Source: Candidatus Uhrbacteria bacterium
GTDB taxonomy: Bacteria; Patescibacteriota; Patescibacteriia; GWA2-47-26
Length of the DNA: 64,000 nt
NCBI GenBank assembly: GCA_016187515.1
Contig: JACPJN010000007.1
Span: 68,046-132,045 of the forward strand
Direction of reading: 5' to 3'
Part shown: positions 9,402 to 43,938 of the stretch, in pieces
Layout of the letters: each line of letters begins with the position of its first letter
Position numbering within the stretch: the stretch's first letter is position 1
Position numbers and translations under genes: made by a program
The notes under the pieces: model-generated
What the model saw: only the letters and a program-made list of their open reading frames with translations
The model's database searches: none
What the model was told of the DNA's origin: nothing

Positions 9402-9413
9402 GATTCATGATTC

Positions 9414-10316: not shown

Positions 10317-10320
10317 AAAG

Positions 10321-10405
10321 GGAGTAAATCAAGCGAGACAAGCAAGGCAAGTAAATTAAGTACTGGACTTGCCTGATTTACCTGATTCACTTGATTTACT
10401 GACTT
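10321..10405. repeat. Family-2 palindromic word-repeat (GTAAATCAAG / CTTGATTTAC words)
   Basis: gagtaaatcaagcgagacaagcaaggcaagtaaattaag ... cctgatttacctgattcacttgatttac. Confidence 0.8.
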
Positions 10406-16800: not shown

Positions 16801-19800
16801 TCCTTCAAAAATGCTCACCGCTTCATCCGCGCCAGTTACGTTAACGCGCACGTTTTCCACGGTACAGATCTCGGATCCGGTAGTGAAGTTCCAACTTGAA
16901 TCTGTTCCGCCTTCGGCAGCGGGACCGCGGAAGGCCACGCCGAAAATCGAGCGCACTCCAGAAGCGATCAAATCATTAAGGTTCGGGTCGCCAGCAATGG
17001 TGATCTGATAATCTGTCGCGTTATCCAAAATCCGCGAAGGTTGCAGGACTAAACGACTCCCCTGTGCTGCCGATTCAACCGACGCCTTTAAGCTCAAGGA
17101 CGGATCAGCGCACCACACCGAATTTCTTGCCCGGCCCTGAAGAGTCAGGCCATCCGGACACGTCGCAGTGTTTTCAACACGCTTGGCAATTCCGATCGCT
17201 TGATCAAGATTTGCGGAATCCATGGGTTGATCAAAAGTTACTTCCAAAAGTCCATTGGGACAGGCGTCTGGCGTATTGATGCCCGGCACGCGCTCCACAA
17301 TTTTCGGGCGAAGATAACAACAGTTGTCGCTCCCGCGGCCCACGGCCTCGGATGGCCCTTGTCCGGGCGTTGGACAATCGGCTTCGCTGCGGGCCACGCA
17401 AAATACGGTAATACTGGCGCTGCCCGGCGCGCCCGCTTGTCCCTCCACCGCCGCCTCTACCGCCACCGTACTCCAAGGATTAGGCGGAGCGCAGACCGGA
17501 AAATTCTCATCCGTACAATTGCCATTGCTGCTACAGGGCGCGCGCGGTTCCTTAAATTCTCCGGTCTCTTTGCGGCAGAACTTCCGAATCCCCAAGGCCC
17601 TGGCTTGCTGAATTGGATCAATGCGCCGAGGCGACTCCGCAACCGTCCCTTCATTAAGACAGCGCGCGGAACAGCCGTCTCCGGCAGCCGTATTGCCATC
17701 ATCACAGTCCTCAAAACGATCAATCCTCCCATTGCCGCAAAACGGCGAAGGAGTTCCTTCATTAAGACACCGGGATGAACAGCCATCGCCATTGGCGCGA
17801 TTATTTAACTGATCGCATTCTTCACCGGCCTCCACTAATCCGTTGCCGCAGGTGGAAACCGGAAGAGTGCCTTTTAAAAGACACGTGGCTGGGTCGCAGA
17901 ATTCCGAAAGAAGGGGGGCACCTAAAAGGTCGCGGTAACGCTGCTGGTCTTCGGGATCACATTCTTCCCCGCGATCAATCTGCCCGTTTCCGCAAGTAGT
18001 CGCCCGAGAAGTCCCTTCATTCCGACACTGCGTAGAGCAGCCATCGCCCGGTAAAACATTGCCGTCGTCGCAATCCTCGCCATTTCCGGGTTCCGGGTCT
18101 CCGCCACTGCCGCAGCAATTGGTTTGCTCCGGAGCGACACAGCGCGCCAGCGCTCCGGCGTGCAGACAACTCGCGGTGCACCCGGGCAAGCCGGGCGGGT
18201 CGCATTCCTCGCCCGGATCAATAATACCATTCCCGCAGGCGAATCTTCCGAGAATTCCCGCGCTGGATCCCTCGTTTAAACACTGCGCTAAACAGCCATC
18301 GCCATCTATTAAATTTCCGTCATCGCAATCTTCCGCGTATTCCCGCACCCCATTGCCGCAGGAAGGCAAACGATCCACTCCGGTCCGCACTACTCCGGCA
18401 ATCATGGTATTGCCCACCACGCCGGCGACCCGATCATCTTCTTCAAGTTCCGGATCGTCAATCTTCCAACCCCAATCGTAGGACAGCGAATTTAAGCGCT
18501 GGCCCTGCGGATCGCAGGCATCCGGAGCGCTCCGCGGCTCCGCGGAAAAACTCGCGCGCGCGCCGATAAGATAGAGCGCGGCTTGCGGAGGGCTTAATTC
18601 CACGCGATCAACCTGACAGGATGACGCGCCGGTTTTAAAGGTCCAAGAAAAAGTATTGCACTGCGCGCCCGCGCACTTCCCTGGCCCGGGAGCGAGCATC
18701 GCTCCGGTTATCGCGTCACGGCCGGCCCAATTGTAGGAAAAGTTCAGTCCGGCCAGCGGCTTGCCCGGTACGGAGCTGTCGCGGCGGCTTGAATGTAGGC
18801 CAGCGCTGCCGCCTTTGAGTAAAACCCGATAAAAAGTATTGGGCAGTAAGAGATCTTCTCGCGCCGAGGTGGCCGGGTTATCGGTAAGTCCGATCTCCAG
18901 GGTATTTTCTGCGCTCTTCCAAGAAAGTGCGGGGCTCAAAACTCGCTCCGCCAAGCGGCCGGGTTTAAGACAGCGGACGGTGCAGAGCGGATCACGCTCG
19001 CCCCCATCGCAACCGATATCTTCGCCATTGTCCAGCACGCCATTGCCGCAAAGCGCGGGTTCGGATCCCTCGTTTAAGCACTGCGGTAAGCAGCCATCGC
19101 CGGAAAGGCGATTGCCATCATCACAATCTTCCGCGTACTCGCGCAAACCATTGCCGCATTGCGCGAAACGCGTTCCTTCATTAAGACAATTGGGGGAGCA
19201 GCCATCGCCCGCGTTGGTATTGCCGTCATCGCAATCCTCCGCTTCCGAGGCAAGGATCCCATCGCCGCAAGCCGGTACTGACCCGGCGGCAATTGAACCT
19301 TCATTAACACATACTTCGGAACAGCCGTCTCCGGGCCGCAGATTGCCGTCATCGCAGTCCTCGCCCAGTTCAATGCGGCCATTGCCGCAGCCCTGACCTC
19401 CGGCGGAAGAGGGACGACGCGTGCCGGTCCACTGACAAATACTGGTGCAGAGATTGCGCTTGGCCGGGGTGTTTAAAAGCGGCGAATTAGGGTCGCACTC
19501 CTCGCCCGGATCAATCTGGCCATTGCCGCAAAGCAGCGGACTTACCGGATTGCCCCGCCTTAAACAGTCCTGCGGATCGCACCACGACGCAAATTCGTGA
19601 TCAAAATTCACTTCACATTCCTCGCCCGCTTCCAAACGGCTATTGCCGCAAACCGCGAAGTTCGAACTGGTCCCCTCGCGAAGGCATTGCGCGGAACAGC
19701 CATCTCCGGCTTGTCGATTCCGATCATTATCACACTCCTCACCCGGATTAATTTTACCGTTTCCACACAGCGCGGGTCCGGTTCCCTCGTTTAAACACTG

Positions 19801-22800
19801 CGACGAACAGCCATCGCCGTTTTCCAGGTTGCCATCATCACAATCTTCTCCGCGGTCAAGACAGCGGCCGCCTTGGCAGCTCTCTCCTGGCCCGCACTCG
19901 GAAGCATTGCGGCACGCCCGTCCGTCTCCGCAGCGCAGAGAAAAGTTTGATCCCTCATTAAGACAAACTGCGGAACAGCCGTCTCCGGAAGTCGTGTTGC
20001 CATCATCACACTCTTCTCCCGTCTCCACGCTGCCATTGCCGCAAGGCACGGCCCAGAGTAACGCGTTTTGAACATTGGTCACGCTTTGGGGATGCAAAGT
20101 GTTTGAGGAGGTAAACATGGCCACATTAAACCGCGCGGCAATCTTGGCGTTGGTACAGGCCTCTCCGCAAGCCGGCCACCATTGTATTACTTGCGGGTCC
20201 ATAAATGAAATCTTGAGCTTCCCAAAACCGGTGGTCCGTGGGGGCTGCGGCGGAGTATGCGCGCGGACTCTGATCTCTTCGCCTTGGGTGTCTTCCAAGG
20301 CAATTACGGTTACGGTCCAGGGCATGTGCTTACAATACCCTCCAACACAGGCCTCGGTCACGCAAGTATTGGGCTGACCGCCGCAGTCGGCATCTACCTG
20401 GCACGGCGCGTCGTAATTGTTGGAACAATGGCTGTACCCGATCGCGCACTCCGCGTCTTCACTACAGGCCTTGCCGATCGCCGGGGAAATTCCGCTGGAA
20501 TTATAAGTAACCGCCGCGCGCTCCGGATTCTCCGTATCATAGACATCCCAGGCCCACGAATAGTCGTCCGACGACGGCACTACGCAAGGATCGTCAAGCG
20601 CCACGGGAATTGCTAAATAATCAATCGGCTCATTTTCCGTAGTGGCCTCATAAGGGCTGGGCACCACCGCGATCCCGCCGACTTGACAAAGATTATTGTC
20701 CGGATTGGACTCGTTTTTGGTTTGAAACGCAAAACAGTACGCGGCGCGCGCGTCTCCGCAGCGGGATAAGCCGTCTGGAAGCGGGATCATGGGCTGGCCT
20801 TGAAGAGCGCCGCGATCTTGCGCGGTAATTCCTCCGGTCCCGCCCAAAAGTACCACGCGATACCAGGAACCGGCTGAAAAATTATCCGACAGCCAGAAAC
20901 TAAATCCTAATCCGCCGGAATACGGCCCAAATTTACGGCCGAGCGCCTGATCTTCAACTTGGCTGCAGGCCTCCCCTTCAATCTGGACATCATCAACATA
21001 AACCGCGAAGTCCTCTCCGGAACTCGCCTCCTCGCCAACCTCATAAGGATCGCCTTCCAAAAATACGCGCACATAGCCGGGAGCATTGCCATTAGGACTG
21101 GCATCAAAGGTCATGGTTACCGACACCGGCTGCCACTCATTGGTGAGCGTAATTTCGGACCGAACTTTTTGCCAAAAACCACGGGTGGCCAGACAGGTCC
21201 TTTGTCCGGCATTGGTTTGGCTCGCGCACCCGGTGTCCGCAGTACAAGCCACTCCGCCGGATATTCCGCCGCAACGCATTCCGTCAGCGCCGCCCGCGCG
21301 TTGAATTAAAATTCCGGCGCGCTTCCCCGCCCCCGCGGCATCAACCGCTTTCATCCACGCGGTTGCCGTATATATTTTCCCGCTGGTATCGGCAATGGCA
21401 TTGGCTTGGTACCCAAACCAATGCTCATAATTTTGTTGCAGTCCGCGAGTATCTCTCCATCCTGGGCCGGTGTCGTTGTCCAGCTTGGTAAGGGCGAGCG
21501 CAAAATTGCCCGGATCCGCACTAGAAGCGCCGCGCCCAGCGCCTAGCACGGTTTCCACCCCCAACAAATCCTCGTGGCGAAGGTTTGTCGGCGGATCCAG
21601 CGTGGGCTCTGGCGGGCGGCCCCACACGGCAGTATCCGCGGTGAAATTCGGACTTCCAAAAGTGGTGTCCGCGCCATTCAACAGTTCGGTCGGCGCCGTG
21701 CACTTTTGGAGCTTAATCGTCTGCGAATTTAAGGTCGCCGGATCAACCCGGGCGTCCGGATTAAAACTCACTGCCACGGCCGCGTTAACGCATACTCCGG
21801 TATTTGATCCTCTTCCGGATTCGACAGCCGGCGACGGCGAAGGCGGATATTGCGGAAAACCTTCCGCGTCGGCTGCTTTATCGCATCCTTCAAACACCGT
21901 CGGGGTAAGCGGGGCCTGGGAGGTGGTAAACTGCCAAGCAAACGCGGACTCCCCGGGCTGCGCGCCAGCGCAGTCCGCCCTACAAGTTCCGTCTCCACAG
22001 CAAGTCAGACCTCCGAGCGCGGCGCAATCCAAGCGCGCTTCATCAGGGGCCGGCAACCGGCAATCACCAACCAAAAACGTCCGCAAATTCGAAGCGCGCG
22101 TGATCTGGCCTCCTCCAGCTTGCGGAAAATCATTTTGTATAATTACCTCTCCGGCTGGAGTCCCAGCCACGGTGTTTCCGGGCACTTGCGCGCATACTTC
22201 TTGCGCGTCCCAGCCACCGCGCGGACAAGCATCCAAACGGATACCTCCGACATTGGTGAGCGTGGCCGGTAAAGTCGGCGCCCAGGACTGATCCGCGGAA
22301 CTCCTGCGCGCCGTAAATAGCGCCCCGCGGCCGGAAGCCGGCGCGGATCCAAACCGATCTCCAAAAATGCTGACATTGGTAAACGTTGGGCCGGAGGCCG
22401 GCTCAATACAAGCTAAAAATGGCGCGGCTGACTCTTGATCTAAAACATCAAAATCCTTGGGACTGGACTGCTGACGATCATAACGCTGCACATAAAGGTA
22501 GGCGCCATCATCAAAAAGAAGATCGGAGGCGCTGCCATCTTCATCCGCGTCGTGGATATCCAAAATGCGCGGCACTTTAACCGTGATCTGTATTGGACTC
22601 CACCAACTGCTCCCGCATTGCGAAGGAAAGTCCACGTTTCCCTGCACTCCTCGCCCATCGGAAGTAACAAACCAAACCATTCCGGGGGTATCGCCGAAAT
22701 TCCGTCCGGAAATGGTGCACCCGGCCCCTGGCCCGCCGCGCGCCGGATTATCTTCCGGCGCGCCCGCGCAAACTACCGTCGTAATAATTGGCAAAGTGCC

Positions 22801-24813
22801 GGCATCCGGAGAAAGCACGGTAAAGGGAAGGGCGTTGGAGGGAACTTTTTCGGTGTTTTCAACTTGCACCTGGGTTGGGCCAAATGCCAGCGCCGGCACG
22901 CGGCTTAAAATGGCAGTCGCGGACCAGGCGTCCACGGCGCCCGGCTGTCCGCCAAACCGCGCTTGCGCCCGCAGAATCTGCTTGCCCAGGCGGCGGGTCT
23001 GCTCGCCAAACTGCACACCGGTAATATTCACTGGCGCATTCCAAAGCCCGGCGATTGGATTCACGCTGCAAATCCCGGGGTGCTCCACCTCGTTTACTTC
23101 AAATAAACCGGTCGGAGTTGACGATCCGCGCGGCGGGGGATGAACCGGAACGATCGGGCCCCGCGAGTCATTGCTGGTGTCGCGGCACAGATTATCATTG
23201 TCCGCACACCCATCAGCGACCACCGTAACCGGCCCGACCTGCGCGCCCTCCGGAAGACCGACTAAAATATAATTATCAGACCAGGTCGTGTTACCCGCGC
23301 AGGCCTCCGGAGCTTGAGCGCGGACTCCGTTATGGAAAAATGCCGCGCCCGGGGTCTGGCCAAAATTTAATCCGGCGACCGTCACGAGTGTCCCGGCTTT
23401 ACCGTCTCCCGGAGAAATGCCGGTAATCGTCAAGGGCGTAGTGCACTCTTTATCTCCATCACCATCTAGATCCGTGCAAACCCCGCCGGAACATTGGATA
23501 TTATCCGTACAACTGCTGCCGTCGCACAATCCGCAGCCGGAGGGGCCGTCTGCCGCGCTATCGCAATTCGGCCCATCTTCATCATCATCTTGAAGCGGGA
23601 ACCCTAACTGGTCGCGATTAAAGCAGTGACTGGGACGGACGATCACCCGCACCGGAGCAGACCATACCGCGTTATCATCAATATCAAAAGCGCGCGCGCG
23701 CAACTGATGCTGGGCCGGAGCCGGCGGATTCGCCGGAAAACATGGTAAGGTTAAAATAATTTCCAGCGGATAAGTGCCTTCCGGCGGAGTAAGCAGGCCG
23801 TCTAGAAGTGCCGTCCCATCCGCATAGATTTCCACGTGCTCCACTCCCCCATCATCTTTGACTCTGACCTGAACCGGCACGCAAGTGTCCACTTCCACTG
23901 CCGCGCCGTCATCCGGCGACTCAATAGTTACTTCCGGCGGCGCCACATCAATAATACTTCCCGAACGAAACTCTACCCGACAAGTTGGCGCAAATCCGCC
24001 GCAAAGCAAATCCCGGCCATCAAAGCGTTTGACGCCGTCCGCCCCGTCTCGGATCTGCACCACAAATTCAGTATCCGCGTCAAAACAGCGCCGATCTTGA
24101 TTCGGTTCCGGACACGCCGCGGATGGGCGCAATTCTACGATATTGCCAACCACGGCCGCCGGCTCCAAGGCAACCGCTGCGCCGCTGTCTTTGCGCGTAA
24201 GGTTCAGATTTCCGGCCAGGGTCTCCGGGTCGGGCGCGCCGCTAAAAAATACCCGTACCACAATGTTGCGAATCGGCACCGCTCCGGAAGGGGCAATGCG
24301 CCGCACGATAAACGCGTCGGACGGTAAAAACGGGCAATCCGGTCCGGGACAGCGAACATCCGCGGGAATCGTGAGCGGCCCTCCGGCCGCTAACTGTAAA
24401 CGATTCAATACGAATTGGACAATTCCAAACGCCGAAAGAATAATCGCGAGTCCAATCACGGAATTAACCAGCACTTTTTTGGCCTTGTCAATTTGCTCTT
24501 CATTGCCGGCCGAAGTCAGCCATAAAAAACCGCCGTAAAGAATCAAGGCCACGGCCACCAGACCGAGAAAACCCAGCGCCACGCGAATGATGCGCGCCAC
24601 AATCACTCGCGGATCAGCCGTGGGCAAAATCAGTCCGGCTTGCCCGGGAACCGCCGCGATCTCTGCGCCGGTTTGAATCTGGGAAGGCAGCGGCACGCCT
24701 TGAGCCAGCGCCGTCGGAATGGAGAATGCAGAATGAAGAATGAAGAATAAGAAAATCACTACAAACCAGCGAAATATCCATCGGCAATGTTCAATCCGGC
24801 ATTCTAAATTCAT
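13822..24813 (-). CDS. Giant (3663 aa) secreted or surface protein: N-terminal T4SS-pilin-like (VirB2/TrbC-like, two TM helices) domain, Ig-like domains, about 20 Myxococcus-type cysteine-rich repeats, and an internal type IV pilin/GspG-like globular segment
   Basis: Uninterrupted 10,992-nt ORF. N-terminus is signal peptide, then LGFLGLVAVALILYGGFLWLTSAGNEEQIDKAKKVL, then IGLAIILSAFGIV. Contains CGNGxxExGEECDDGNxxxGDGCS repeats and SIQSALEDYRNTHGRYP. Confidence 0.9.
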   Translation of the reverse strand: MNLECRIEHCRWIFRWFVVIFLFFILHSAFSIPTALAQGVPLPSQIQTGAEIAAVPGQAGLILPTADPRVIVARIIRVALGFLGLVAVALILYGGFLWLTSAGNEEQIDKAKKVLVNSVIGLAIILSAFGIVQFVLNRLQLAAGGPLTIPADVRCPGPDCPFLPSDAFIVRRIAPSGAVPIRNIVVRVFFSGAPDPETLAGNLNLTRKDSGAAVALEPAAVVGNIVELRPSAACPEPNQDRRCFDADTEFVVQIRDGADGVKRFDGRDLLCGGFAPTCRVEFRSGSIIDVAPPEVTIESPDDGAAVEVDTCVPVQVRVKDDGGVEHVEIYADGTALLDGLLTPPEGTYPLEIILTLPCFPANPPAPAQHQLRARAFDIDDNAVWSAPVRVIVRPSHCFNRDQLGFPLQDDDEDGPNCDSAADGPSGCGLCDGSSCTDNIQCSGGVCTDLDGDGDKECTTPLTITGISPGDGKAGTLVTVAGLNFGQTPGAAFFHNGVRAQAPEACAGNTTWSDNYILVGLPEGAQVGPVTVVADGCADNDNLCRDTSNDSRGPIVPVHPPPRGSSTPTGLFEVNEVEHPGICSVNPIAGLWNAPVNITGVQFGEQTRRLGKQILRAQARFGGQPGAVDAWSATAILSRVPALAFGPTQVQVENTEKVPSNALPFTVLSPDAGTLPIITTVVCAGAPEDNPARGGPGAGCTISGRNFGDTPGMVWFVTSDGRGVQGNVDFPSQCGSSWWSPIQITVKVPRILDIHDADEDGSASDLLFDDGAYLYVQRYDRQQSSPKDFDVLDQESAAPFLACIEPASGPTFTNVSIFGDRFGSAPASGRGALFTARRSSADQSWAPTLPATLTNVGGIRLDACPRGGWDAQEVCAQVPGNTVAGTPAGEVIIQNDFPQAGGGQITRASNLRTFLVGDCRLPAPDEARLDCAALGGLTCCGDGTCRADCAGAQPGESAFAWQFTTSQAPLTPTVFEGCDKAADAEGFPQYPPSPSPAVESGRGSNTGVCVNAAVAVSFNPDARVDPATLNSQTIKLQKCTAPTELLNGADTTFGSPNFTADTAVWGRPPEPTLDPPTNLRHEDLLGVETVLGAGRGASSADPGNFALALTKLDNDTGPGWRDTRGLQQNYEHWFGYQANAIADTSGKIYTATAWMKAVDAAGAGKRAGILIQRAGGADGMRCGGISGGVACTADTGCASQTNAGQRTCLATRGFWQKVRSEITLTNEWQPVSVTMTFDASPNGNAPGYVRVFLEGDPYEVGEEASSGEDFAVYVDDVQIEGEACSQVEDQALGRKFGPYSGGLGFSFWLSDNFSAGSWYRVVLLGGTGGITAQDRGALQGQPMIPLPDGLSRCGDARAAYCFAFQTKNESNPDNNLCQVGGIAVVPSPYEATTENEPIDYLAIPVALDDPCVVPSSDDYSWAWDVYDTENPERAAVTYNSSGISPAIGKACSEDAECAIGYSHCSNNYDAPCQVDADCGGQPNTCVTEACVGGYCKHMPWTVTVIALEDTQGEEIRVRAHTPPQPPRTTGFGKLKISFMDPQVIQWWPACGEACTNAKIAARFNVAMFTSSNTLHPQSVTNVQNALLWAVPCGNGSVETGEECDDGNTTSGDGCSAVCLNEGSNFSLRCGDGRACRNASECGPGESCQGGRCLDRGEDCDDGNLENGDGCSSQCLNEGTGPALCGNGKINPGEECDNDRNRQAGDGCSAQCLREGTSSNFAVCGNSRLEAGEECEVNFDHEFASWCDPQDCLRRGNPVSPLLCGNGQIDPGEECDPNSPLLNTPAKRNLCTSICQWTGTRRPSSAGGQGCGNGRIELGEDCDDGNLRPGDGCSEVCVNEGSIAAGSVPACGDGILASEAEDCDDGNTNAGDGCSPNCLNEGTRFAQCGNGLREYAEDCDDGNRLSGDGCLPQCLNEGSEPALCGNGVLDNGEDIGCDGGERDPLCTVRCLKPGRLAERVLSPALSWKSAENTLEIGLTDNPATSAREDLLLPNTFYRVLLKGGSAGLHSSRRDSSVPGKPLAGLNFSYNWAGRDAITGAMLAPGPGKCAGAQCNTFSWTFKTGASSCQVDRVELSPPQAALYLIGARASFSAEPRSAPDACDPQGQRLNSLSYDWGWKIDDPELEEDDRVAGVVGNTMIAGVVRTGVDRLPSCGNGVREYAEDCDDGNLIDGDGCLAQCLNEGSSAGILGRFACGNGIIDPGEECDPPGLPGCTASCLHAGALARCVAPEQTNCCGSGGDPEPGNGEDCDDGNVLPGDGCSTQCRNEGTSRATTCGNGQIDRGEECDPEDQQRYRDLLGAPLLSEFCDPATCLLKGTLPVSTCGNGLVEAGEECDQLNNRANGDGCSSRCLNEGTPSPFCGNGRIDRFEDCDDGNTAAGDGCSARCLNEGTVAESPRRIDPIQQARALGIRKFCRKETGEFKEPRAPCSSNGNCTDENFPVCAPPNPWSTVAVEAAVEGQAGAPGSASITVFCVARSEADCPTPGQGPSEAVGRGSDNCCYLRPKIVERVPGINTPDACPNGLLEVTFDQPMDSANLDQAIGIAKRVENTATCPDGLTLQGRARNSVWCADPSLSLKASVESAAQGSRLVLQPSRILDNATDYQITIAGDPNLNDLIASGVRSIFGVAFRGPAAEGGTDSSWNFTTGSEICTVENVRVNVTGADEAVSIFEGEGGAGFSRPGQQAQVRAEALSSSGQALQRTTGYSWAWSWRSAENTVASVTNEPDPINAADPINADPDQTVTAGNRNGETDVNATATITDASALPQPEDHQDAVREGSAEFITTLCENPWPSRIEHPLPRFEDREGALLGGGDPMNFRTWYCRDSGEEGLAGDLPALIYPGAIRPPAAGADEGAPVTLDTFRIATSHTGPAPLKEYLLVESAEKQQAIGIRVFPNPRRLPVRTWYEQMGFTGTPAPINPGVDGYEAIRDRNTVYVAGTNAVTDRYVPTLKVVYSNIYVLSLSENAPSAMQQVFDQFVSNFQLNVNVENSNRDKLRRDLLRLNHISSIQSALEDYRNTHGRYPPLQAGTFIRSMSTSKWPSWQATLGATLGASLPQDPLNSFAPGCAAIPGERGQFDPATCWNEQTQTYRCPAGSHVYQYRAIGAVDYELGVDFELLYRPPAPGQSRWEVFNFDPAGTNLLTPSNCSWVSAPGAPAGGLWSNATATCGNGILERGECLPDGTCANYPGVSCGVNNCQEFCEVGQEEVQQARWFGYCGDPGAPFEGGFRQRCNPETGVISTAPRFPDSGSTCTLHARGSSCVPLRSCSLNPSKECVNDENCADNEGVCILSSQCQAVRACTNRCEWNDAPQVTDWQIWGGSQNPTSNLDICQGGVICGNGIREGSEVCDDGLLNGQYGKCNTVCARTCIGGPNQGNICTEDNNCFPWGQCSATALSAYCGDGTRNGPEVCDSTNSSGAACVNGDYGCCRFDCSGPGARCGDNEIQEEWNEQCEAGDTRQSPQVCMWVWGASDFGKPCRQDSDCDTSFGSCKFTGPIQWDGTHVYDSQQFTEPEGYPYLWRQACRSGGPCRWGGLTTVAQGQCGNGAREGNEQCDDGTTNDGQNDAAENADGCINDCKHAKCGDGFNQGLVCVGTGDRNRDGVTCRRDQDCGRGRCTDPEECDEGTSNGTRCTPGYGLVGCTYCDNQCNISTLSGGVLVEEGAALD

Positions 24814-24832: not shown

Positions 24833-26896
24833 TCAAAATCCGCACGGCCCAGCTTGCGCCACGCCATTGCAACAATAAGGAGTGGCTGCCGTGAGATCTC
24901 CTTGACACTCGCCTGACGGGAAATAACAATTCTGGAAAAGATCTTTAACGTCCGAGTCAATCCGACTGGTATAATCGGTTTCTTCCCAAAGTCCGCCGTT
25001 TAAAATATCCGCCCGGGTTTGTCCATACGGGAAATCATCCAAATCCTCGGCCAGATTTTGACTGCCCACAGTCCACCAAGTGTCCCAGAACCCGCCGGTT
25101 AGCTTATCAGTGCCGGCCAAGTTCAGATTTCTGGAATTAAGCGTCGCGGCCGCCATGGCTCGGTTAAAGGTAATGCCCAAGGTCGTCTGTAAAGGCACTC
25201 CCGGCGTAACTGCACCGGCGGTCACCGTGGGAGTCGTGAGCGTTACCTCGGGCGCCCCGAGCAAAATCTCGTGGGAAGTATAAAATGACCAACGCACGTT
25301 ATCACCTCTGGCCGGATTTTCCGCGTTACGGCTAAAGAAAGTCGTCTCTGCTAAATCACCCGGGCCTTGCGCGGCGCCATTGCCATTGCCATCCAGCGAA
25401 TTGCCCGCGACATCTTCTATGCCGTCCAAGCCACCGGACGAGGTCGGACCGCCTTGGGAAGACAGCGTGGCGGCCAGGACCTCCCCGCGAATCTGACGGC
25501 CGCCCGGCAAGCAAAACACGTCTCCGCCGCAAGAATTAACCGCGCACCGATCTTGACTGATAAATTCCGCGGTCTGGTATTGATTGGCCAGCTCAAACCG
25601 ACCGGCCACAAAACGATACTGATTATCCGGGGCTGGCTCGGAGACCCGCATGATCTGATAGGTTCCCTTCTTAATCTCCCCTTGGTCAGTAACCGCGGTT
25701 ACTCCCGAGGCCACGGTCGGCAGAATCGGTTCGCTGAAATTAATCTGGACAATGGAGTTGCGCGGAACATCTTTTCGGCAGGGCGGACTGGCGCACGCGC
25801 TTTCATCTCCGGCATTATCCGGCAGCGGAATTACGCTGGTGATGCGCGGCGGAGTCAAATCTAAAAAGGTGCCGACTTCAAACGACCACTGATAATCCGG
25901 AAAGCGCCCGGCAAACGCGGGTAGGCCGTTTAAGAGTTTAATCCCCTCCCGCCGACAATTACCTCCGCGGGAAGCGGTGCCGCATAAATAGACCGTGTAG
26001 GGGGTGTCTTCTTCCGCGCTGCCAAAATAAGCCCGCTGCGCGTGGTTATCGCGAGATACCGGCGTGAGCACCAAAGTGCGCAAATCGGTAAAACTTACCA
26101 GCACGTCCGCGTCTCCGGCCGCGCTTCCCAAATACCGATCCTTATCGCTTTCGCGCACCGAACCCTCAATATCGGCGGTGCGGATAATTTGAATCGCGTC
26201 CGGACGCAGCGTCAGTCCCGGAACTGACTTACGTGTATCAATTACGCCATCTTGATCCGCGTCCACCGCGTCAAAATACTGCGGGTTACCTTGCGCGTCT
26301 TTTGCGAGAGTATCCGCAAAACTCGCCGGATCAACCGCGTCTTTAAAAGTAATCAAAATTCGCACGTTGCGCGGAACTCCGCGTTGTCCGCGAGTGGGAT
26401 AATGGCTCTCCACCATGCCGGAACCGAGCGCTCCTCCGCCAACTCTTGCGGCGGCAGCGGAGGGCGGCGGCAAGGGCGGCGCCTCCAATCCGGAGGTCAG
26501 CGCGCGCAGCACAAACAAAACAATGCCATAAGCCGAAAGAATAATCGCGAGCCCAATGGTCGCGTCAATCAACACCTTTTTGGCTTTTTCAATCTGCTCT
26601 TCATTGCCGGCCGAGGTCATCCAAAGATACCCGCCCCAAAGAATTAAGATGAGCGCCACGACCCCTAAAAACCCTAATGCCACTTGAATGATCTTAGCCA
26701 CAATCACCCGCGGGTCACTCACGGGCAAGATCAGTCCGGCCTGCCCGGGGACTGCCGCGATCTCCTCCCCGGTGCGGATCTCGAGGGTAGGCGGAATTTG
26801 CGCCGCGACAAAAACCGGCCATACCAAAAGTACGCCTAGGGCTATGGTAATGATTATCGCCTGAAATCGACGCATGTAATCCCAGATTATGCTCAA
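24833..26896 (-). CDS. 687-aa secreted protein with the same N-terminal T4SS-pilin-like domain plus Ig-like domains; paralogous to the N-terminus of the giant protein
   Basis: TGEEIAAVPGQAGLILPVSDPRVIVAKIIQVALGFLGVVALILILWGGYLWMTSAGNEEQIEKAKKVLIDATIGLAIILSAYGIV. Sits 20 nt upstream of the giant gene on the same strand. Confidence 0.85.
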   Translation of the reverse strand: MSIIWDYMRRFQAIIITIALGVLLVWPVFVAAQIPPTLEIRTGEEIAAVPGQAGLILPVSDPRVIVAKIIQVALGFLGVVALILILWGGYLWMTSAGNEEQIEKAKKVLIDATIGLAIILSAYGIVLFVLRALTSGLEAPPLPPPSAAAARVGGGALGSGMVESHYPTRGQRGVPRNVRILITFKDAVDPASFADTLAKDAQGNPQYFDAVDADQDGVIDTRKSVPGLTLRPDAIQIIRTADIEGSVRESDKDRYLGSAAGDADVLVSFTDLRTLVLTPVSRDNHAQRAYFGSAEEDTPYTVYLCGTASRGGNCRREGIKLLNGLPAFAGRFPDYQWSFEVGTFLDLTPPRITSVIPLPDNAGDESACASPPCRKDVPRNSIVQINFSEPILPTVASGVTAVTDQGEIKKGTYQIMRVSEPAPDNQYRFVAGRFELANQYQTAEFISQDRCAVNSCGGDVFCLPGGRQIRGEVLAATLSSQGGPTSSGGLDGIEDVAGNSLDGNGNGAAQGPGDLAETTFFSRNAENPARGDNVRWSFYTSHEILLGAPEVTLTTPTVTAGAVTPGVPLQTTLGITFNRAMAAATLNSRNLNLAGTDKLTGGFWDTWWTVGSQNLAEDLDDFPYGQTRADILNGGLWEETDYTSRIDSDVKDLFQNCYFPSGECQGDLTAATPYCCNGVAQAGPCGF

Positions 26897-38646: not shown

Positions 38647-39504
38647 TTATGTTACCACCTCCGCCCCGCGCTTGCGCACAATCACCGTATGCTCAAAATG
38701 CGCCGAGGGTTTGCCATCGGCCGTTACGATGGTCCAGCCGTCGGGTTGCACATTGACGCGCCAGGTTCCTAAATTTACCATCGGCTCAATCGCAATCACC
38801 ATTCCCTCTTGCAGTATGCAATCCGGAAATCCTTCCACCCAAAAATTCGGGATCTCTGGCGGTTCGTGCACGCGGTAGCCCACGCCGTGTCCGACGAGTT
38901 CGCGCACAATCCCAAACCCAAATTTCTCCACATACTTTTCAATGGCTTTGGAAATATGGCTAACGCGATGACCGGCGCGCACTTGTTTGATGCCAATCTT
39001 TAACGCGCGCCCGGTTACTTTGATCAGTTCACGCACCTTGCGATCCACGCGGCCGACCATGACTGTGCGTGCCGTATCAGTATAGAGACCCCTCCTAACC
39101 TCCCCTTGTAAAGGGGAGGAAATTGTTTCATTTCTCCCCCTCTCGGAGGGGGAGTGAGAGGGGGTCCGTAGAACCGGCCACCGCATGCCGATGTCTATTT
39201 TCACAAGATCTCCATCCTTAATTACCCGCGACGGCACCGCCGGCGCGTGCACTACTTCCTGATTTAGGCACGCGCAAATCGTCGTGGTAAACGGCGGATG
39301 ATCCGGCCGCGGCGCGTAGCCCTTAAACGCCGGCTCTCCGCCGGCCTCCCGAATCATCCGCTCCGCCGCCACATCAAGTTCTTCGGTCGTTACTCCCGGC
39401 TTTACCATTTTACAAAGTCGCTCCAAAATCTTCGCCAAGCGCTTTCCGCCTTGGCGAATCAACTCCAGCTCCTTGGGGTTCTTTATAGTTGCTCCGCGTT
39501 CCAT
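38647..39504 (-). CDS. map: Type I methionine aminopeptidase with an in-frame repeat-encoded insertion of about 32 aa
   Basis: VVHAPAVPSRVIKDGDLVKIDIGM [insertion] GLYTDTARTVMVG ... HGVGYRVHEPPEIPNF ... IEPMV. Confidence 0.9.
   Translation of the reverse strand: MERGATIKNPKELELIRQGGKRLAKILERLCKMVKPGVTTEELDVAAERMIREAGGEPAFKGYAPRPDHPPFTTTICACLNQEVVHAPAVPSRVIKDGDLVKIDIGMRWPVLRTPSHSPSERGRNETISSPLQGEVRRGLYTDTARTVMVGRVDRKVRELIKVTGRALKIGIKQVRAGHRVSHISKAIEKYVEKFGFGIVRELVGHGVGYRVHEPPEIPNFWVEGFPDCILQEGMVIAIEPMVNLGTWRVNVQPDGWTIVTADGKPSAHFEHTVIVRKRGAEVVT
39085..39168. repeat. Family-1 element (cctcccctt gtaa aaggggagg / ctccccctc tc gagggggag), in frame inside map
   Basis: Seen in the sequence. Confidence 0.85.
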
Positions 39505-39642: not shown

Positions 39643-39999
39643 TTAGGCCTGGAGCATGCGCTCCAGGTCCGCGACTGCCTGGCGAATCCGCGCGTCTTTC
39701 TGAATCCGCGCCTTAGTTTTACGGCAAGCCGTAATCACGGTCGAGTGATTCATGCCGCCAAAACGCCGGCCAATCTCCGGATAGCTCAAGTCGCACAGTT
39801 GACGCATCAGATACATCGCGATCTGGCGCGGGACGCTAATTGCGCGATGCCGCTTTGGTCCGCGCAGGTCCGCGACCGTGACGTGAAAGTAGTTGGCCAC
39901 GGTCCGCTGTACAGTTGGAGCATCCAGCGCCTCTTGACGCTGACGCGGGAAAGTGTAGCCGGGATTAAGCCCCGACCAGGTTCTACTGGCTGATTCCAT
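39643..39999 (-). CDS. Stand-alone DnaA domain IV-like (C-terminal HTH DNA-binding domain) protein
   Basis: VANYFHVTVADLRGPKRHRAISVPRQIAMYLMRQLCDLSYPEIGRRFGGMNHSTVITACRK. Has RBS GAGGAGG and a TTGACA promoter upstream. Confidence 0.65.
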   Translation of the reverse strand: MESASRTWSGLNPGYTFPRQRQEALDAPTVQRTVANYFHVTVADLRGPKRHRAISVPRQIAMYLMRQLCDLSYPEIGRRFGGMNHSTVITACRKTKARIQKDARIRQAVADLERMLQA

Positions 40000-40137
40000 T
40001 AATCTTGTCCTCCTCGCTTTTATTCTGGCATACTCTTACACCCGTGTCAACTGCAAGTCAAACCTTGCGACCAATACTTGTGAAAAAAAATACGAATCTT
40101 TTCAAAATATTTCTGGACTCTTTTCGCATTCAAATTT

Positions 40138-40791
40138 TTAAAATCCCGTTTGCAGCGCTTGCATGATATTTTCGTGGATTTTTTCAATTGAGGAAGAGGC
40201 CTCTATTTCACGCAAAATTCCGCGATGGCGGTAAAGATCCAGCAGGGGTTCGGTTTCGGCGCGGTAGATTTGCAAACGCTTGGATACGGCTTCGGGTTTG
40301 TCATCATCACGCGAAGTTAAGGGCACGCCGTCTTCATCGCAATGCCATACTCCCTCGCCGCGGGATTCTTTAGGCGGAGCATAAACCACATGATAATTAG
40401 TGCCGCATTTGGTGCAGACCAGTCGGCCGGTCATGCGCTTGAGCGCTTCGTGGTCGGAAAGATTAAGTACCAGCACCTGGGTGGCCGCGATAAATTCACC
40501 AAGCAAATCATACTGCGCGCGGTTTCGCGGGTAGCCATCCAGAATAAACCCCTTTTGCGCATCTGCCTGGTTCAAGCGCGCGCGCACCACTTGCGCGGTC
40601 AAATTATCCGGCGCCAGGTTGCCGCCGCGAATAATTTCCTCGGCGCGGCGCCCCAGCGCGGTGCCGGCCGCGATTTCCGCGCGCCAAAGCGCTCCGGCCG
40701 AAATCAAAGGGATGCTCAATTTTTCCGACAGCAATTTGCCTTGGGTGCCTTTGCCTGAACCCTGGGGGCCTAAAAGTAGAATGCGATACAT
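40138..40791 (-). CDS. adk: Adenylate kinase with a zinc lid
   Basis: LLLGPQGSGKGTQ plus CTKCGTNYH...CDEDG. Confidence 0.95.
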   Translation of the reverse strand: MYRILLLGPQGSGKGTQGKLLSEKLSIPLISAGALWRAEIAAGTALGRRAEEIIRGGNLAPDNLTAQVVRARLNQADAQKGFILDGYPRNRAQYDLLGEFIAATQVLVLNLSDHEALKRMTGRLVCTKCGTNYHVVYAPPKESRGEGVWHCDEDGVPLTSRDDDKPEAVSKRLQIYRAETEPLLDLYRHRGILREIEASSSIEKIHENIMQALQTGF

Positions 40792-40796
40792 AGTGA

Positions 40797-40874
40797 TTGA
40801 GTTATTAAGTTAAGGGTTATTAAGTTATTGAAATCACTACTTAATAACTTACTAACTCAATAACCTAATAACTC
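40797..40874. repeat. Family-3 palindromic word-repeat
   Basis: gattgagttattaagttaagggttattaagttattg ... cttaataacttactaactcaataacctaataact. Confidence 0.8.
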
Positions 40875-41676
40875 CAAATCCGGCCAAGGTTCCCAGCACA
40901 ATTGAAGGCAGCGCCGGCAAGGGGCGGCGATGACCCAACTGGAACAAGAGATCCGTGCCTAAAAGACCGAGCAGTGACCCGGCCGCGGCGCCGACGCCAA
41001 ACCAAAATCCTTCCCGCGCCGCGGCGGCCACAAATACCGCGGGGAGCGCCAGGTCTCCGGTTCCCAGAAAGAAAAAACCCTCGCCCGGGGTAACCGCGCG
41101 CAGCTTTTTAAAAAACCATCTTGGACGCTCGGGAAGGATCAGCGCGAAAATCACTCCCTTATCAAGCAGACCCTTAAACATGGTTACCATGTGGTGGGTT
41201 CCATAAACCGCGATCACATCATAGAGACCCAGAATAATCAGCACCACTGCCATTGATTCCCAAGCAATCACGCTTCCCAACGAGGCCGCGATACCGGCAA
41301 TCCCCCCGAGCATAATCACATTCTGCGCGATAATCAGAGGAAACAAGTAGCGCAGGGCAATCAGCCCCAGGGCTAAAAATAACGCCTCCTGCGGAAGATA
41401 CAGCTCCAAAAGCGCCCAAAGACCAATCAGAATCGACAAGCCAAAAATCGCTTCAAATACGACTCGGCGCCGGAGCTTGCGGATCAGAAAAAAAAGCACT
41501 GCCGTGGATAATAAAAAAGAGAAAATCAGCCGCGGCGCGGATAATTCCAGCGTTGTTCCGGAACCGACCAGGATATCGGCGCTCCTTAAGCGCGCGGCGG
41601 CCGATAAAACCAGCGCCTCGGTTGCCGCCAGCAGAAGCACGGTTTGTAAGATAAGAAAAAGCTGCTTTTTGGACAT
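40852..41676 (-). CDS. Presenilin / signal-peptide-peptidase-like intramembrane aspartyl protease homolog (A22-like)
   Basis: Polytopic membrane protein with ordered motifs LGLYDVIAVYG (YD), FLGTGDLALP (GxGD) and LPALPSI (PAL). Confidence 0.55.
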   Translation of the reverse strand: MSKKQLFLILQTVLLLAATEALVLSAAARLRSADILVGSGTTLELSAPRLIFSFLLSTAVLFFLIRKLRRRVVFEAIFGLSILIGLWALLELYLPQEALFLALGLIALRYLFPLIIAQNVIMLGGIAGIAASLGSVIAWESMAVVLIILGLYDVIAVYGTHHMVTMFKGLLDKGVIFALILPERPRWFFKKLRAVTPGEGFFFLGTGDLALPAVFVAAAAREGFWFGVGAAAGSLLGLLGTDLLFQLGHRRPLPALPSIVLGTLAGFGVIRLLS

Positions 41677-41726
41677 AAGACCTCTTGCAAAACAATATGT
41701 TCTACTGTAATTGGTTTGGCCGAGGG

Positions 41727-41963
41727 TTACTGGCCGAAAATGGCTTGCTCAATGGCCGAGGCGTCTCCTTCGGAGATTTTGAACTCGGCGCGCAGCTTAC
41801 GCAGACCTTTGCGCAACTCCGCTTCATATAGCCCGCCGGACCGCGCTTGCTTAAGCAGCTCTTTGACCTGCGCCTGTTCTTTCCAGCCCAACCGCTCGCG
41901 AAGTTTATATAAAATCGCGTTGATTTCCCGATCGGAGAGTTGTTTAGCCATATATTTAGTCAT
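41727..41963 (-). CDS. Hypothetical small protein (78 aa)
   Basis: ORF between secY and the protease gene. Confidence 0.4.
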   Translation of the reverse strand: MTKYMAKQLSDREINAILYKLRERLGWKEQAQVKELLKQARSGGLYEAELRKGLRKLRAEFKISEGDASAIEQAIFGQ

Positions 41964-42036
41964 CAGTTCACAGTCGTCAGTTCACGGCATTGTATTGGCG
42001 CAACTGTGAACCGACGTCTGACGACTGTAGACTCAA
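41958..42036. repeat. Family-4 palindromic word-repeat (CAGTTCAC / GTGAACTG words)
   Basis: tcatcagttcacagtcgtcagttcacgg ... caactgtgaaccgacgtctgacgactg. Confidence 0.75.
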
Positions 42037-43317
42037 TTAGGTTTCATACTCATGCATAGTCAGCTGCGCTTCAATCTGCGTAAGGGTCTCAATCACCACC
42101 GAGACCACGATGAGCACGCTGGTTCCGCCAATCGCGAGCGCCTGTAATCCGGTCAGCCGCTGCATGGCTAAAGGAAGTACCGCGATGACTGCCAGAAATA
42201 AGGCGCCCACGAGGATCACGCGCGAGGTGACGTATTGAAGATAAGCCGCGGTGGGCTTTCCCGGACGAATCCCGGGGACAAAGCCGCCTTGTTTTTGAAG
42301 ATTTTCGGCAATCTGACCCGGATGAAAGACCACGGCCGTATAGAAGTACGTAAAAATAAACACCAAAATAAAGTAGAGTATTCCATATACTAAATTATTT
42401 TGAAAAAAATTGACTACCCATTGCGCGAGGCGGACGACTGTGAGATTGCTGGCCTGCAGGAAAAACTGGGCAATCATTGGCGGAAAAAGCACGATGGAGA
42501 TCGCGAAGATAATCGGGATAACGCCGGCCATATTCACCTTCAGCGGCAGGTGCGTGTCCACTCCGCCATACATTTTCATGCCGCGCACGCGCCGAGCGTA
42601 GGAAACCGGGATATTGCGCTGCGCTTGAGTGATGAGCACCACGCCCACCACCGTCGTAAGCGAAAGGGCGGCAAACAGCGCGAAATTGAGCGCTTGGGTA
42701 GGATCAAAACTCACCAGCACCTGCTGCGCCGCGGTCGGCAGACCGGCGATAATGCCGGCAAAGATCAAGAGTGAGATTCCATTGCCAACCTTGCGTTCCG
42801 TGATCAACTCTCCAATCCACATCAAAAACATGGTTCCGGCCGTAAGCGTCAGGATGGTAATGATATAGGCCTGGGGAGTGAGAATTCCAATAATCTGAAT
42901 CGGCGACTGGCGCAGCAGAGTAATCAGTCCAAACCCCTGGAGAGCCGCCAGCGGAACCGCGGCGTAGCGGGTCCATTGGTTGATTTTCTGGCGACCCGCC
43001 TCGCCTTCTTTCTGAAGCGCTTCCAGCTGGGGAACGACCATGGCGAGCAGCTGAAAGATAATCGAGGAAGTAATGTAGGGCGCCACCCCCAGAGCCACTA
43101 CTGAAAAACTCTCCATGGTCCCGCCGGAAAAGACATTCAAGAGTCCTAAAATCGCGTTGCTTCGAAAAAACGCCTGCAGATTCTCGGTATTCACGCCGGG
43201 AATGGGAATGTGCGCGGCTAACCGAAAAATAAAAAGCATCGCCACCACGTACAGGATACTACGGCGCAAATCCTTAAGACGCCAGATTCGGATGATCGTG
43301 CTCAAGATGCGATTCAT
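42037..43317 (-). CDS. secY: Preprotein translocase SecY
   Basis: Start trimmed to ATG 43317 (MNRILSTIIRIW). The track ORF's first 34 aa are read-through into the family-2 repeat. Confidence 0.9.
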   Translation of the reverse strand: MNRILSTIIRIWRLKDLRRSILYVVAMLFIFRLAAHIPIPGVNTENLQAFFRSNAILGLLNVFSGGTMESFSVVALGVAPYITSSIIFQLLAMVVPQLEALQKEGEAGRQKINQWTRYAAVPLAALQGFGLITLLRQSPIQIIGILTPQAYIITILTLTAGTMFLMWIGELITERKVGNGISLLIFAGIIAGLPTAAQQVLVSFDPTQALNFALFAALSLTTVVGVVLITQAQRNIPVSYARRVRGMKMYGGVDTHLPLKVNMAGVIPIIFAISIVLFPPMIAQFFLQASNLTVVRLAQWVVNFFQNNLVYGILYFILVFIFTYFYTAVVFHPGQIAENLQKQGGFVPGIRPGKPTAAYLQYVTSRVILVGALFLAVIAVLPLAMQRLTGLQALAIGGTSVLIVVSVVIETLTQIEAQLTMHEYET

Positions 43318-43326
43318 AGTTGCGTT

Positions 43327-43407
43327 GAGTAAATCAGGTAAATCAAGCGAGACAAGTGAATCAAGTGTTTGACTGGCCTGATTTACTTGATTCACTTGAT
43401 TTACTCT
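43327..43407. repeat. Family-2 palindromic word-repeat between rplO and secY
   Basis: gagtaaatcaggtaaatcaagcgagacaagtgaatcaagtgtttgactggcctgatttacttgattcacttgatttac. Confidence 0.8.
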
Positions 43408-43843
43408 CAACAGAGCCACCGGCCTGCTCTATTTTAGCACGCGCGGACTTAGAAAGCGAACAACCCTTAACCGTTAGGGCCTTTGTCAGCGTACCCTCTC
43501 CCAGAATTTTAATCGGCGCTCGTAGATTCTGTACCAAATCAAACTTTACTAAAAGTTCCGGCGTAATTGACGTGCCGGCCGCGAAACGCTCATCAAGCAC
43601 TCCGACATTCACCACCGCGGGTCTTCGATGAATGGAAGTAAAGCCGCGCCCCTTGGGGATTCTTTGCATAATCCGCTTCAGTCCGATGCGCTTAAGTCCA
43701 CGGCGTCCGCCTGATCGCGCGCGCTGACCCTTAGTTCCCTTTCCCGCGGTAGTCCCTCGCCCGGAACCGGCGCCGCGACCAATTCGTCTGACTCTGGTGC
43801 GCGAGCCGGAAGCGGGTTTTAGATTGGAAAGCGTGAATGTCAT
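43361..43843 (-). CDS. rplO: 50S ribosomal protein L15; last about 13 aa encoded by the repeat
   Basis: MTFTLSNLKPASGSRTRVRRIGRGAGSGRGTTAGKGTKGQ. Confidence 0.9.
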   Translation of the reverse strand: MTFTLSNLKPASGSRTRVRRIGRGAGSGRGTTAGKGTKGQRARSGGRRGLKRIGLKRIMQRIPKGRGFTSIHRRPAVVNVGVLDERFAAGTSITPELLVKFDLVQNLRAPIKILGEGTLTKALTVKGCSLSKSARAKIEQAGGSVESKSSESSKSGQSNT

Positions 43844-43851
43844 ATTGGGCG

Positions 43852-43938
43852 GGATGGCCACGGATTTTCTACGGATGGCCGACGGATCACGGATCCGTGA
43901 TCTTGTGGCTATCCTGTCTTCTATCCGTGGCTATCTAT
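43852..43938. repeat. Family-6 palindromic repeat (CACGGAT / ATCCGTG words), at the position where rpmD (L30) would normally lie
   Basis: gatggccacggattttctacggatggccgacggatcacggatccgtgatcttgtggctatcc. Confidence 0.8.

Follow-up and report, generated by a model that had tools for sequence, protein, structure and literature searches.

A PSH-family, presenilin-type intramembrane aspartyl protease gene between secY and adk in the ribosomal superoperon of a Candidatus Uhrbacteria genome

The window, a 64,000-nucleotide stretch of a Candidatus Uhrbacteria genome, carries on its minus strand (40852..41676) a gene for a 274-residue member of the PSH family of di-aspartyl intramembrane proteases (MEROPS A22, Pfam PF06550), located in the spc part of a ribosomal superoperon between secY and adk. 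By every testable criterion the protein belongs to this family, and the assignment itself is routine; the one unusual point is the place of its gene in the operon, which is conserved and lineage-specific. The protein is probably a catalytically competent PSH-type protease with a predicted presenilin orientation, probably co-transcribed with secY, that may serve in housekeeping clearance or quality control of membrane proteins.

Sequence family and catalytic motifs

The reading frame opens with an ATG at 41676, and a Shine-Dalgarno-like AAGAGG (41681..41686, minus strand), as read from the sequence, lies 4 nt 5' of it. Its product is 100% identical to the Candidatus Uhrbacteria protein NCBI HYW17_03405, deposited as "hypothetical protein". 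In the profile search that the first-pass annotation had proposed as a check, the protein scored 67.5 bits against PF06550 ('SPP', signal-peptide peptidase/presenilin aspartyl protease), well above the gathering cutoff of 23.9 (E 1.7e-18), with a full-length alignment spanning profile positions 3-276 of 283, and the same family is precomputed on the identical database protein. Two further Pfam models gave weaker matches below their cutoffs, namely Peptidase_A22B (PF04258; 18.5 bits, cutoff 23.3) and Presenilin (PF01080; 9.6 bits, cutoff 34.3), and no other Pfam family, Peptidase_A24 and transporters included, appeared at E <= 1. The NCBIfam model NF041679 (IMP_arch_presen, the archaeal PSH equivalog) likewise aligned over its full length (7-277 of 281, E 1.9e-18), but its 67 bits stay below the equivalog cutoff of 125, which would account for the 'hypothetical protein' label in NCBI. 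Judged by these scores the protein is homologous to archaeal PSH, but it cannot be filed as an NF041679 equivalog.

A phmmer search against PDB sequences found a single protein, the PSH of Methanoculleus marisnigri (4HYC and related entries, E 1.7e-11). Its alignment places YD on YD and GTGD on GMGD, and at the PAL position, in the corresponding segment ahead of the final helix, sets the canonical PALP of the window protease against AGL followed by the conserved P in 4HYC (AGLP in MCMJR1). Taken together, this hit and the full-length PF06550 match mean that the motifs co-occur far beyond chance. The initial call of a presenilin/A22-type intramembrane protease resembling archaeal PSH/MCMJR1 is thus borne out by PF06550, by 4HYC and by the Foldseek search described below. 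The three segments on which that call was based (LGLYDVIAVYG, FLGTGDLALP and LPALPSI) are all present in the 274-residue product, with A22 order and spacing: YD at residues 152-153, GTGD at 205-208 and PAL at 254-256. Specifically, the codons of Y152-D153, the latter being the first catalytic Asp, occupy 41218..41223 (minus strand) and fall inside the TM6 helix (139-160). Those of G205-T-G-D208, which include the second catalytic Asp, occupy 41053..41064 (minus strand), at the cytoplasmic start of TM7 (helix 206-222). Those of P254-A255-L256 occupy 40909..40917 (minus strand), directly before TM9 (helix 256-273), in a motif extended to PALP (P254-A-L-P257) as in presenilin-1.

A first protein search yielded 44 homologues, every one of them (44/44) with a precomputed PF06550 match, and 24 of these, at 26-62% identity to the query, were aligned to assess conservation. 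No substitution occurs at Y152, D153, G205, G207, D208, A255 or P257 in this 24-homologue alignment; conservation reaches at least 90% at P254 and L256, and is also strong across a (T)xHMxxMFK motif past YD. YD and GxGD were also found in 76 of the 77 other PSH reading frames taken from genome loci, the exception being a mis-called 523-aa ORF, and many other CPR copies depart from strict PAL. When the window gene was compared with its 57%-identical orthologue in the Uhrbacteria locus L001, nucleotide differences numbered 105/61/165 at codon positions 1/2/3, and different codons encode 90 of the 153 residues that are identical. Such third-position bias, read from this pair of sequences, is the signature expected of a translated gene under purifying selection.

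Predicted fold and membrane orientation

An AlphaFold2 model built from the 24-sequence alignment (pLDDT 88.7, pTM 0.88) has nine TM helices, at residues 3-32, 47-67, 71-93, 98-111, 115-134, 139-160, 206-222, 224-247 and 256-273, together with an amphipathic helix (162-172) and two short beta-strands (178-182 and 201-205) between TM6 and TM7. The model thus predicts a nine-TM presenilin fold with A22 placement of YD, GxGD and PAL. A Foldseek search of the PDB points the same way: the top 25 matches were all PSH, human SPPL2a or presenilin-1/-2 chains (probability 0.95-1.00, TM-scores about 0.6-0.7), the next hit had a probability of 0.04, and no further hit exceeded 0.09. No A24 structure was listed among the PDB hits, and transporter hits stayed at probability <= 0.07 and TM-score < 0.25. 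With YD in TM6 and GxGD in the adjacent TM7 of the model, the topology is the one that the first-pass annotation had anticipated; neither of the two outcomes that it had named as damaging, motifs lying outside the TM helices or a match to a transporter, was seen in the model, Pfam or Foldseek.

The orientation of the protein in the membrane was assessed by counting K+R in model-defined loops across the 24 aligned sequences. The mean count was 16.8 in the N-terminus plus loops 2, 4, 6 and 8, and 2.8 in the alternate loops plus the C-terminus, with the excess on the side of the N-terminus in 24/24 sequences. Applied to these counts, the positive-inside rule puts the N-terminus and the TM6-TM7 loop in the cytoplasm and the C-terminus outside, a predicted orientation that is presenilin/PSH-like and opposite to that of SPP/SPPL. 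In the characterized enzymes orientation and substrate class go together: SPP/SPPL are oriented opposite to presenilin, and presenilin, with its cytosolic N-terminus, cleaves type I segments, whereas the inverted SPP/SPPL cleave type II segments, including signal peptides (PMC7366577; PMC2947513; PMC12745688). If this eukaryotic rule holds here, the presenilin-like orientation leads one to expect N-out/C-in (type I) substrates and not signal peptides, which, the linkage to secY notwithstanding, speaks against the protein being a classic signal-peptide peptidase. The marks of a eukaryotic-type SPP, a PF04258 score over the cutoff combined with an inverted topology, were not found, the values being 18.5 bits and N-in in 24/24. 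Thus, of the original heading 'presenilin / signal-peptide-peptidase-like', the presenilin half stands and the other half needs qualification, the orientation not being SPP-like.

Relation to known intramembrane proteases

The nearest characterized relative is archaeal PSH/MCMJR1 (4HYC, 4HYG, 4Y6K; PF06550; NF041679), which shares with the window protease the Pfam family and the nine-TM fold (TM-score about 0.65-0.73). The two stand-alone proteins are close in length, 274 aa here and 301 aa in the archaeal enzyme; in each, YD falls in TM6 and is followed by a conserved (T)KHM, GxGD falls in TM7, and the loop joining these helices is basic and cytoplasmic. The two differ in that the window protease has only 21-25% identity to archaeal PSH, a bacterial (CPR) host, a place in the spc operon and a score below the equivalog cutoff, and its closest non-CPR relatives among the best 80 of 147 loci are DPANN proteins, not the euryarchaeal prototype. 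For MCMJR1, Asp-dependent cleavage of TM substrates and inhibition by transition-state analogues have been shown, and its physiological substrates are stated to be unknown (PMC2947513). A literature search for intramembrane cleavage by any bacterial member of the family found no report.

[quoted passage not shown] Unlike presenilin, to which it is 14-17% identical, the window protease has no long regulatory loop and no endoproteolysis site. SPP/SPPL (PF04258; SPPL2a 9K92) are alike in fold (TM-score about 0.67-0.71) and in being cofactor-independent, and the link of the window protease to secY echoes the role of eukaryotic SPP past signal-peptidase cleavage; the predicted orientation is inverted relative to theirs, however, and signal-peptide (type II) cleavage is not the activity to be expected. 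SppA, a serine protease, and RseP/S2P, an M50 metalloprotease, could be its counterparts in function, removing the TM remnants that Sec-dependent export leaves behind, although their folds and catalytic mechanisms are unrelated to those of the window protease.

Genomic context in the window

The window contains the str-S10-spc ribosomal superoperon on its minus strand. Upstream of the protease gene lies secY (42037..43419, minus strand; PF00344, E 1.3e-105), whose mechanical GTG start gives a product of 460 aa. Translation probably begins in fact at Met 35 of this frame, about 43317, since orthologues have 424-427 aa and not 460; the window SecY is 79% identical to the 426-aa SecY of L001. Downstream, 60 bp past the protease stop, follows adk for adenylate kinase (40138..40791, minus strand; PF00406, E 2.5e-36, plus ADK_lid). 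The earlier description of the gene as lying between secY and adk was therefore right as to place, with all genes on one strand, but it passed over a small reading frame, ORF78 (41727..41963, minus strand), between secY and the protease gene. ORF78 encodes a small, soluble, charged, helical protein of 78 aa, whose translation probably begins at the second Met (41951), giving the 74 aa of NCBI HYW17_03410. An orthologue 75% identical to it occupies the same place in L001-L004, with differences of 13/12/44 at codon positions 1/2/3; it is missing from that place in L006, L007, L084 and L085, and in L005 it sits after adk. Its homologues form only 6 clusters, all unnamed or from Uhrbacteria, and no Pfam or NCBIfam family matched it. 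A role for ORF78 as a protease cofactor is unsupported, given that its family is very small, restricted to Uhrbacteria, lacks any domain and varies in presence and position, and genes for gamma-secretase-type cofactors (nicastrin, APH-1, PEN-2) were not evident near the protease gene. An overlapping antisense reading frame (41716..42009, plus strand) was rejected as a real gene, because the antisense frame in L001 has stops and ORF78 is third-position-biased.

The gaps separating secY, ORF78, the protease gene and adk are 73, 50 and 60 bp, all on one strand. Simple scans of these three gaps on the minus strand found no promoter-like and no terminator-like site. The spacer between secY and ORF78 (41964..42036, minus strand) can form a stable RNA hairpin with a perfect 12-bp stem and without a U-tract (MFE -28.5 kcal/mol, z = -3.28 vs shuffles), which was not called as a terminator on the minus strand. 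Because the genes share a strand, lie at short distances and are interrupted by no predicted terminator, the protease gene probably shares a transcript with secY and the ribosomal-protein genes, and would hence be constitutively expressed. Other, clearly unrelated genes have also been inserted in the superoperon, namely HicAB, a RecQ-like helicase and a DnaA domain-IV ORF. Elsewhere in the window there is a gene of the M50/site-2-protease family (61108..61725, E 1.4e-15), and Rfam and tRNA scans across the window found nothing.

Distribution and conservation of the secY-PSH-adk arrangement

A narrow pattern scan with one genome per species gave 147 loci with PSH relatives, the best 80 of which were examined. 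Most of these best 80 of 147 carry Patescibacteria titles (Uhr-, Falkow-, Yanofsky-, Nealson- and Moranbacteria, Paceibacterota, 'Parcubacteria'), and DPANN archaea (Pace-, Woese-, Nano- and Undinarchaeota) are also among them. Taxon counts are not to be taken at face value, as some titles of metagenome-assembled genomes ('Gammaproteobacteria', 'Saccharibacteria', 'Sulfurovum') appear unreliable; L005, for one, is titled Gammaproteobacteria and has a SecY 77% identical to that of the window. The suggestion in the first-pass annotation that bacterial homologues are uncommon consequently does not apply to Patescibacteria, and is correct only outside the CPR. Indeed, databases already tag Patescibacteria relatives as 'presenilin family intramembrane aspartyl protease', and the presence of the family in CPR bacteria is already known to annotation pipelines.

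The position of the gene in the spc operon, by contrast with its family, is as unusual as had been proposed, being both lineage-specific and conserved in Uhrbacteria-like genomes. The order secY-PSH-adk is found in L001-L007, L069, L084 and L085, which come from NCBI, ENA, JGI and Logan assemblies, and the linkage reaches down to about 40% PSH identity and 42-46% Adk identity. In the order typified by L001 (Uhrbacteria RIFCSP genomes, ENA assemblies), L15 is followed by secY, a 75-aa ORF, PSH, adk, a small ORF and map, and the gaps from secY through the ORF and PSH to adk are only 14, 3 and 3 bp in L001. When the scanned loci were searched by tblastn with the SecY, Adk and Map of the window, the arrangement was found only in L004-L007 and L069, and it also occurs on two metagenomic contigs carrying the relatives P0037 (51% identity) and P0038 (40%). 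It was not found at about 70 other CPR/DPANN loci searched by tblastn, nor on the contig of P0042. The arrangement is thus confined to an Uhrbacteria-like lineage, within which it is conserved. An origin of the operon position in faulty assembly or binning was rejected, since the arrangement recurs in the independent NCBI, ENA, JGI and Logan assemblies. Linkage of this kind may carry no function, a gene inserted in an ultra-conserved operon being able to persist by trapping, and this weighs on any claim of a role.

In a rough neighbour-joining tree without support values, the window protein and those of L004-L007 form one clade, outside which L069 lies on a long branch; for both L069 and P0038 the best BLAST hits are mixed. 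A single ancestral insertion into the spc operon is plausible. At other loci the recurrent neighbours are Lon, an MBL/beta-CASP nuclease, a cupredoxin-like protein and a Mur ligase, each at 17-19 of the 80 loci, a recurrence that is probably synteny inside one CPR subgroup. A functional neighbourhood common to all CPR/DPANN homologues was sought and none was found, Lon and the others looking like lineage synteny. The window protease is 33-39% identical to DPANN copies and 21-25% to euryarchaeal PSH, which hints at a gene pool common to CPR and DPANN; exchange of the PSH family between the two radiations by inter-domain gene transfer is possible.

Proposed mechanism and alternative readings

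On the preferred reading the protein would act as a single-chain, nine-TM enzyme in which Asp153 of TM6 and Asp208 of TM7, set opposite one another close to the cytoplasmic leaflet, cleave a peptide bond inside the transmembrane helix of a substrate by hydrolysis. By homology to presenilin-1 and SPPL2a, the PALP motif and the beta-strands at 178-182 and 201-205 would contribute to the form of the active site and to docking of the unwound substrate. Its substrates would be type I TM segments, most plausibly short-ectodomain stubs and orphan or misinserted single-pass proteins, and with constitutive expression from the spc operon the enzyme could serve in membrane-protein clearance or quality control beside Sec-dependent insertion. 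Removal of type I TM stubs or of misinserted proteins may be the most economical role to propose. A stronger version, in which Uhrbacteria recruited a presenilin-type protease to work constitutively with the Sec translocon and clear the TM remnants of export and insertion, is a speculation to which we give little weight.

Two other accounts retain the protease activity and differ as to what the linkage to secY means. The gene could encode an uhrbacterial signal-peptide peptidase coupled to SecY, clearing the signal peptides that stay in the membrane past signal-peptidase cleavage, the task of SPP in eukaryotes and of SppA and RseP in model bacteria. The best Pfam model is indeed named SPP, the gene lies downstream of secY in a conserved arrangement, and the protein is apparently stand-alone, like SPP and PSH, with no gamma-secretase-type cofactors encoded nearby. 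Against this, the strong positive-inside signal makes the protein N-in, opposite to SPP/SPPL, and signal peptides are type II-oriented and cleaved by eukaryotic enzymes of inverted topology (PMC7366577). Moreover, the linkage to secY is missing in most CPR/DPANN homologues, and the window encodes a separate M50/S2P enzyme at 61108..61725. An enzyme of the M50 family, RseP of E. coli, can degrade signal peptides. We consider a signal-peptide peptidase improbable on this balance. A rather more serious competitor, though still on the unlikely side, is an active PSH-type protease whose place in the spc operon reflects accidental insertion and subsequent trapping, and whose job has nothing to do with secretion, for example regulated intramembrane proteolysis of one or a few particular regulators tethered to the membrane. 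The unrelated HicAB, RecQ-like helicase and DnaA domain-IV insertions in the same superoperon, the entirely different neighbours in other CPR lineages and the gain and loss of ORF78 at the same site are all in keeping with such an origin. Conservation of the arrangement over deep divergence and its tight spacing in L001 speak against it, although neutrality is still compatible with both, and no candidate regulator-substrate pair is encoded beside the gene.

The remaining accounts dispense with the protease activity or with the family, and are far less probable. That the presenilin fold here serves a pseudo-protease or some non-proteolytic function, such as a scaffold or leak channel, could be read from the score below the NCBIfam equivalog cutoff. 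Pseudo-enzymes normally lose their catalytic residues, whereas both catalytic Asp and the GxGD glycines are invariant in the 24 homologues and the PAL region varies little within this clade; with purifying selection added to these invariant catalytic residues, a pseudo-enzyme is unlikely, and we regard this account as very improbable. Lower still, close to negligible, stands assignment to another GxGD enzyme, a type IV prepilin/preflagellin peptidase (MEROPS A24), or to an unrelated polytopic transporter. A24 enzymes also have a GxGD-like motif, and CPR bacteria commonly encode type IV pili; Pfam (E <= 1) and Foldseek nevertheless rule out an A24 peptidase, including the FlaK/PilD fold, as well as a transporter.

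Significance

The literature on intramembrane proteolysis treats presenilin/SPP-type proteases as eukaryotic and archaeal, yet bona fide members are widespread in the CPR. A full-text literature search found no paper linking presenilin homologues with CPR, Patescibacteria or Parcubacteria, and the lineage-specific fixation of such a gene in the secY-adk interval appears to be undescribed. The present assignment allows the annotation 'hypothetical protein' to be corrected, and leaves what is known of the mechanism of the family unchanged. Fixation between secY and adk provides a testable handle, in that the type I orientation predicted for substrates and probable co-expression with the translocon could guide the search for physiological function. 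If the protease does work together with the Sec translocon, a prokaryotic presenilin homologue would for the first time have a physiological role assigned to it, and presenilin biology would gain a simple bacterial model.

Gene boundaries and the small ORF between secY and the protease

The mechanically called secY ORF (42037..43419, minus strand) opens at a GTG and encodes 460 aa, including an N-terminal extension of 34 residues that contains a VNQVNQVNQ repeat. Since SecY orthologues are 424–427 aa long, translation probably begins at a Met near position 43317; the longer version would, besides, share sequence with the end of rplO (43361..43861). On its other side, secY is separated from the small ORF78 by a spacer that can fold as an RNA hairpin (41964..42036, minus strand) with a perfect 12-bp stem, a folding energy of -28.5 kcal/mol and a z-score of -3.28 relative to shuffled sequences. 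Lacking a U-tract, this hairpin may serve in processing or stability and not in termination.

ORF78 itself (41727..41963, minus strand) encodes a small, charged, helical protein and is flanked by secY on one side and by PSH, the presenilin-type aspartyl intramembrane protease gene, on the other; the NCBI annotation begins it at the second Met, giving a 74-aa product. Searches of Pfam and NCBIfam returned no family match for this protein and its homologues form only six clusters, those that are named being from Uhrbacteria, where it shares 75% identity with its orthologue, a level above that of PSH or Adk. Among the loci with the secY–PSH–adk arrangement its position varies: in L005 the homologue is placed after adk instead, and in L006, L007, L084 and L085 it is absent.

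Downstream of adk

Between adk and map lies a 118-aa ORF (39643..39999, minus strand) consisting of DnaA domain IV alone (PF08299 Bac_DnaA_C, E 8.9e-29) and covering positions 340–437 of the 437 in TIGR00362. A promoter-like site (40050..40022) stands immediately 5' of it, and tblastn found no match to this ORF in the syntenic loci L001–L007. The methionine aminopeptidase encoded by map (38647..39504, minus strand) is 78% identical to its counterpart in L001, the locus from a related Uhrbacteria genome. Its PF00557 profile match is split into two stretches, and an S/P/R/E-rich insert of about 30 residues appears to be present around residues 100–130.

Other proteases and insertions in the window

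A second intramembrane protease, unrelated to PSH, is encoded just upstream of the str operon (61108..61725, minus strand), a 205-aa metalloprotease of the Peptidase_M50 (site-2-protease) family (E 1.4e-15) that carries an HEYMH motif. The Lon protease gene (30765..33131, minus strand) is located about 8 kb from PSH, and among further CPR loci, the best 80 of 147, there are 19 where Lon lies at most three genes from the PSH homologue, a proximity that may be functional or plain synteny. Within the ribosomal superoperon, the fusA–tuf interval (55191..57100, minus strand) holds non-ribosomal insertions, namely a RecQ-like DEAD-box helicase (55191..56549) that carries a RecQ zinc-binding domain, a HicA toxin (56546..56785, E 1.2e-13) and a HicB-like antitoxin (56789..57100), all on the minus strand; upstream of rpsL, an ORF at 60526..60780 gave a weak ParE/RelE-like match. 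Elsewhere, a giant ORF of 3663 aa (13822..24813, minus strand) with a hydrophobic segment at its N-terminus is followed by one of 687 aa (24833..26896).

Relatives of the protease

In L001, an Avd-like gene (weak PF22296 match) and a reverse transcriptase gene (PF00078) occupy positions 9280..10819 of that locus, approximately 4 kb downstream of PSH, and as a pair may represent a diversity-generating retroelement. Homologues of PSH from DPANN archaea (L010, L014, L017, L018, L020–L022, L024, L025, L029, L031–L033, L036, L059 and L077) share 33–39% identity with the protein of the window, versus 21–25% for the euryarchaeal prototype, PSH of Methanoculleus marisnigri (4HYC). In a rough NJ tree these DPANN sequences cluster together and adjoin those of CPR bacteria which, with their closer resemblance, suggests gene sharing between CPR and DPANN for this protease.
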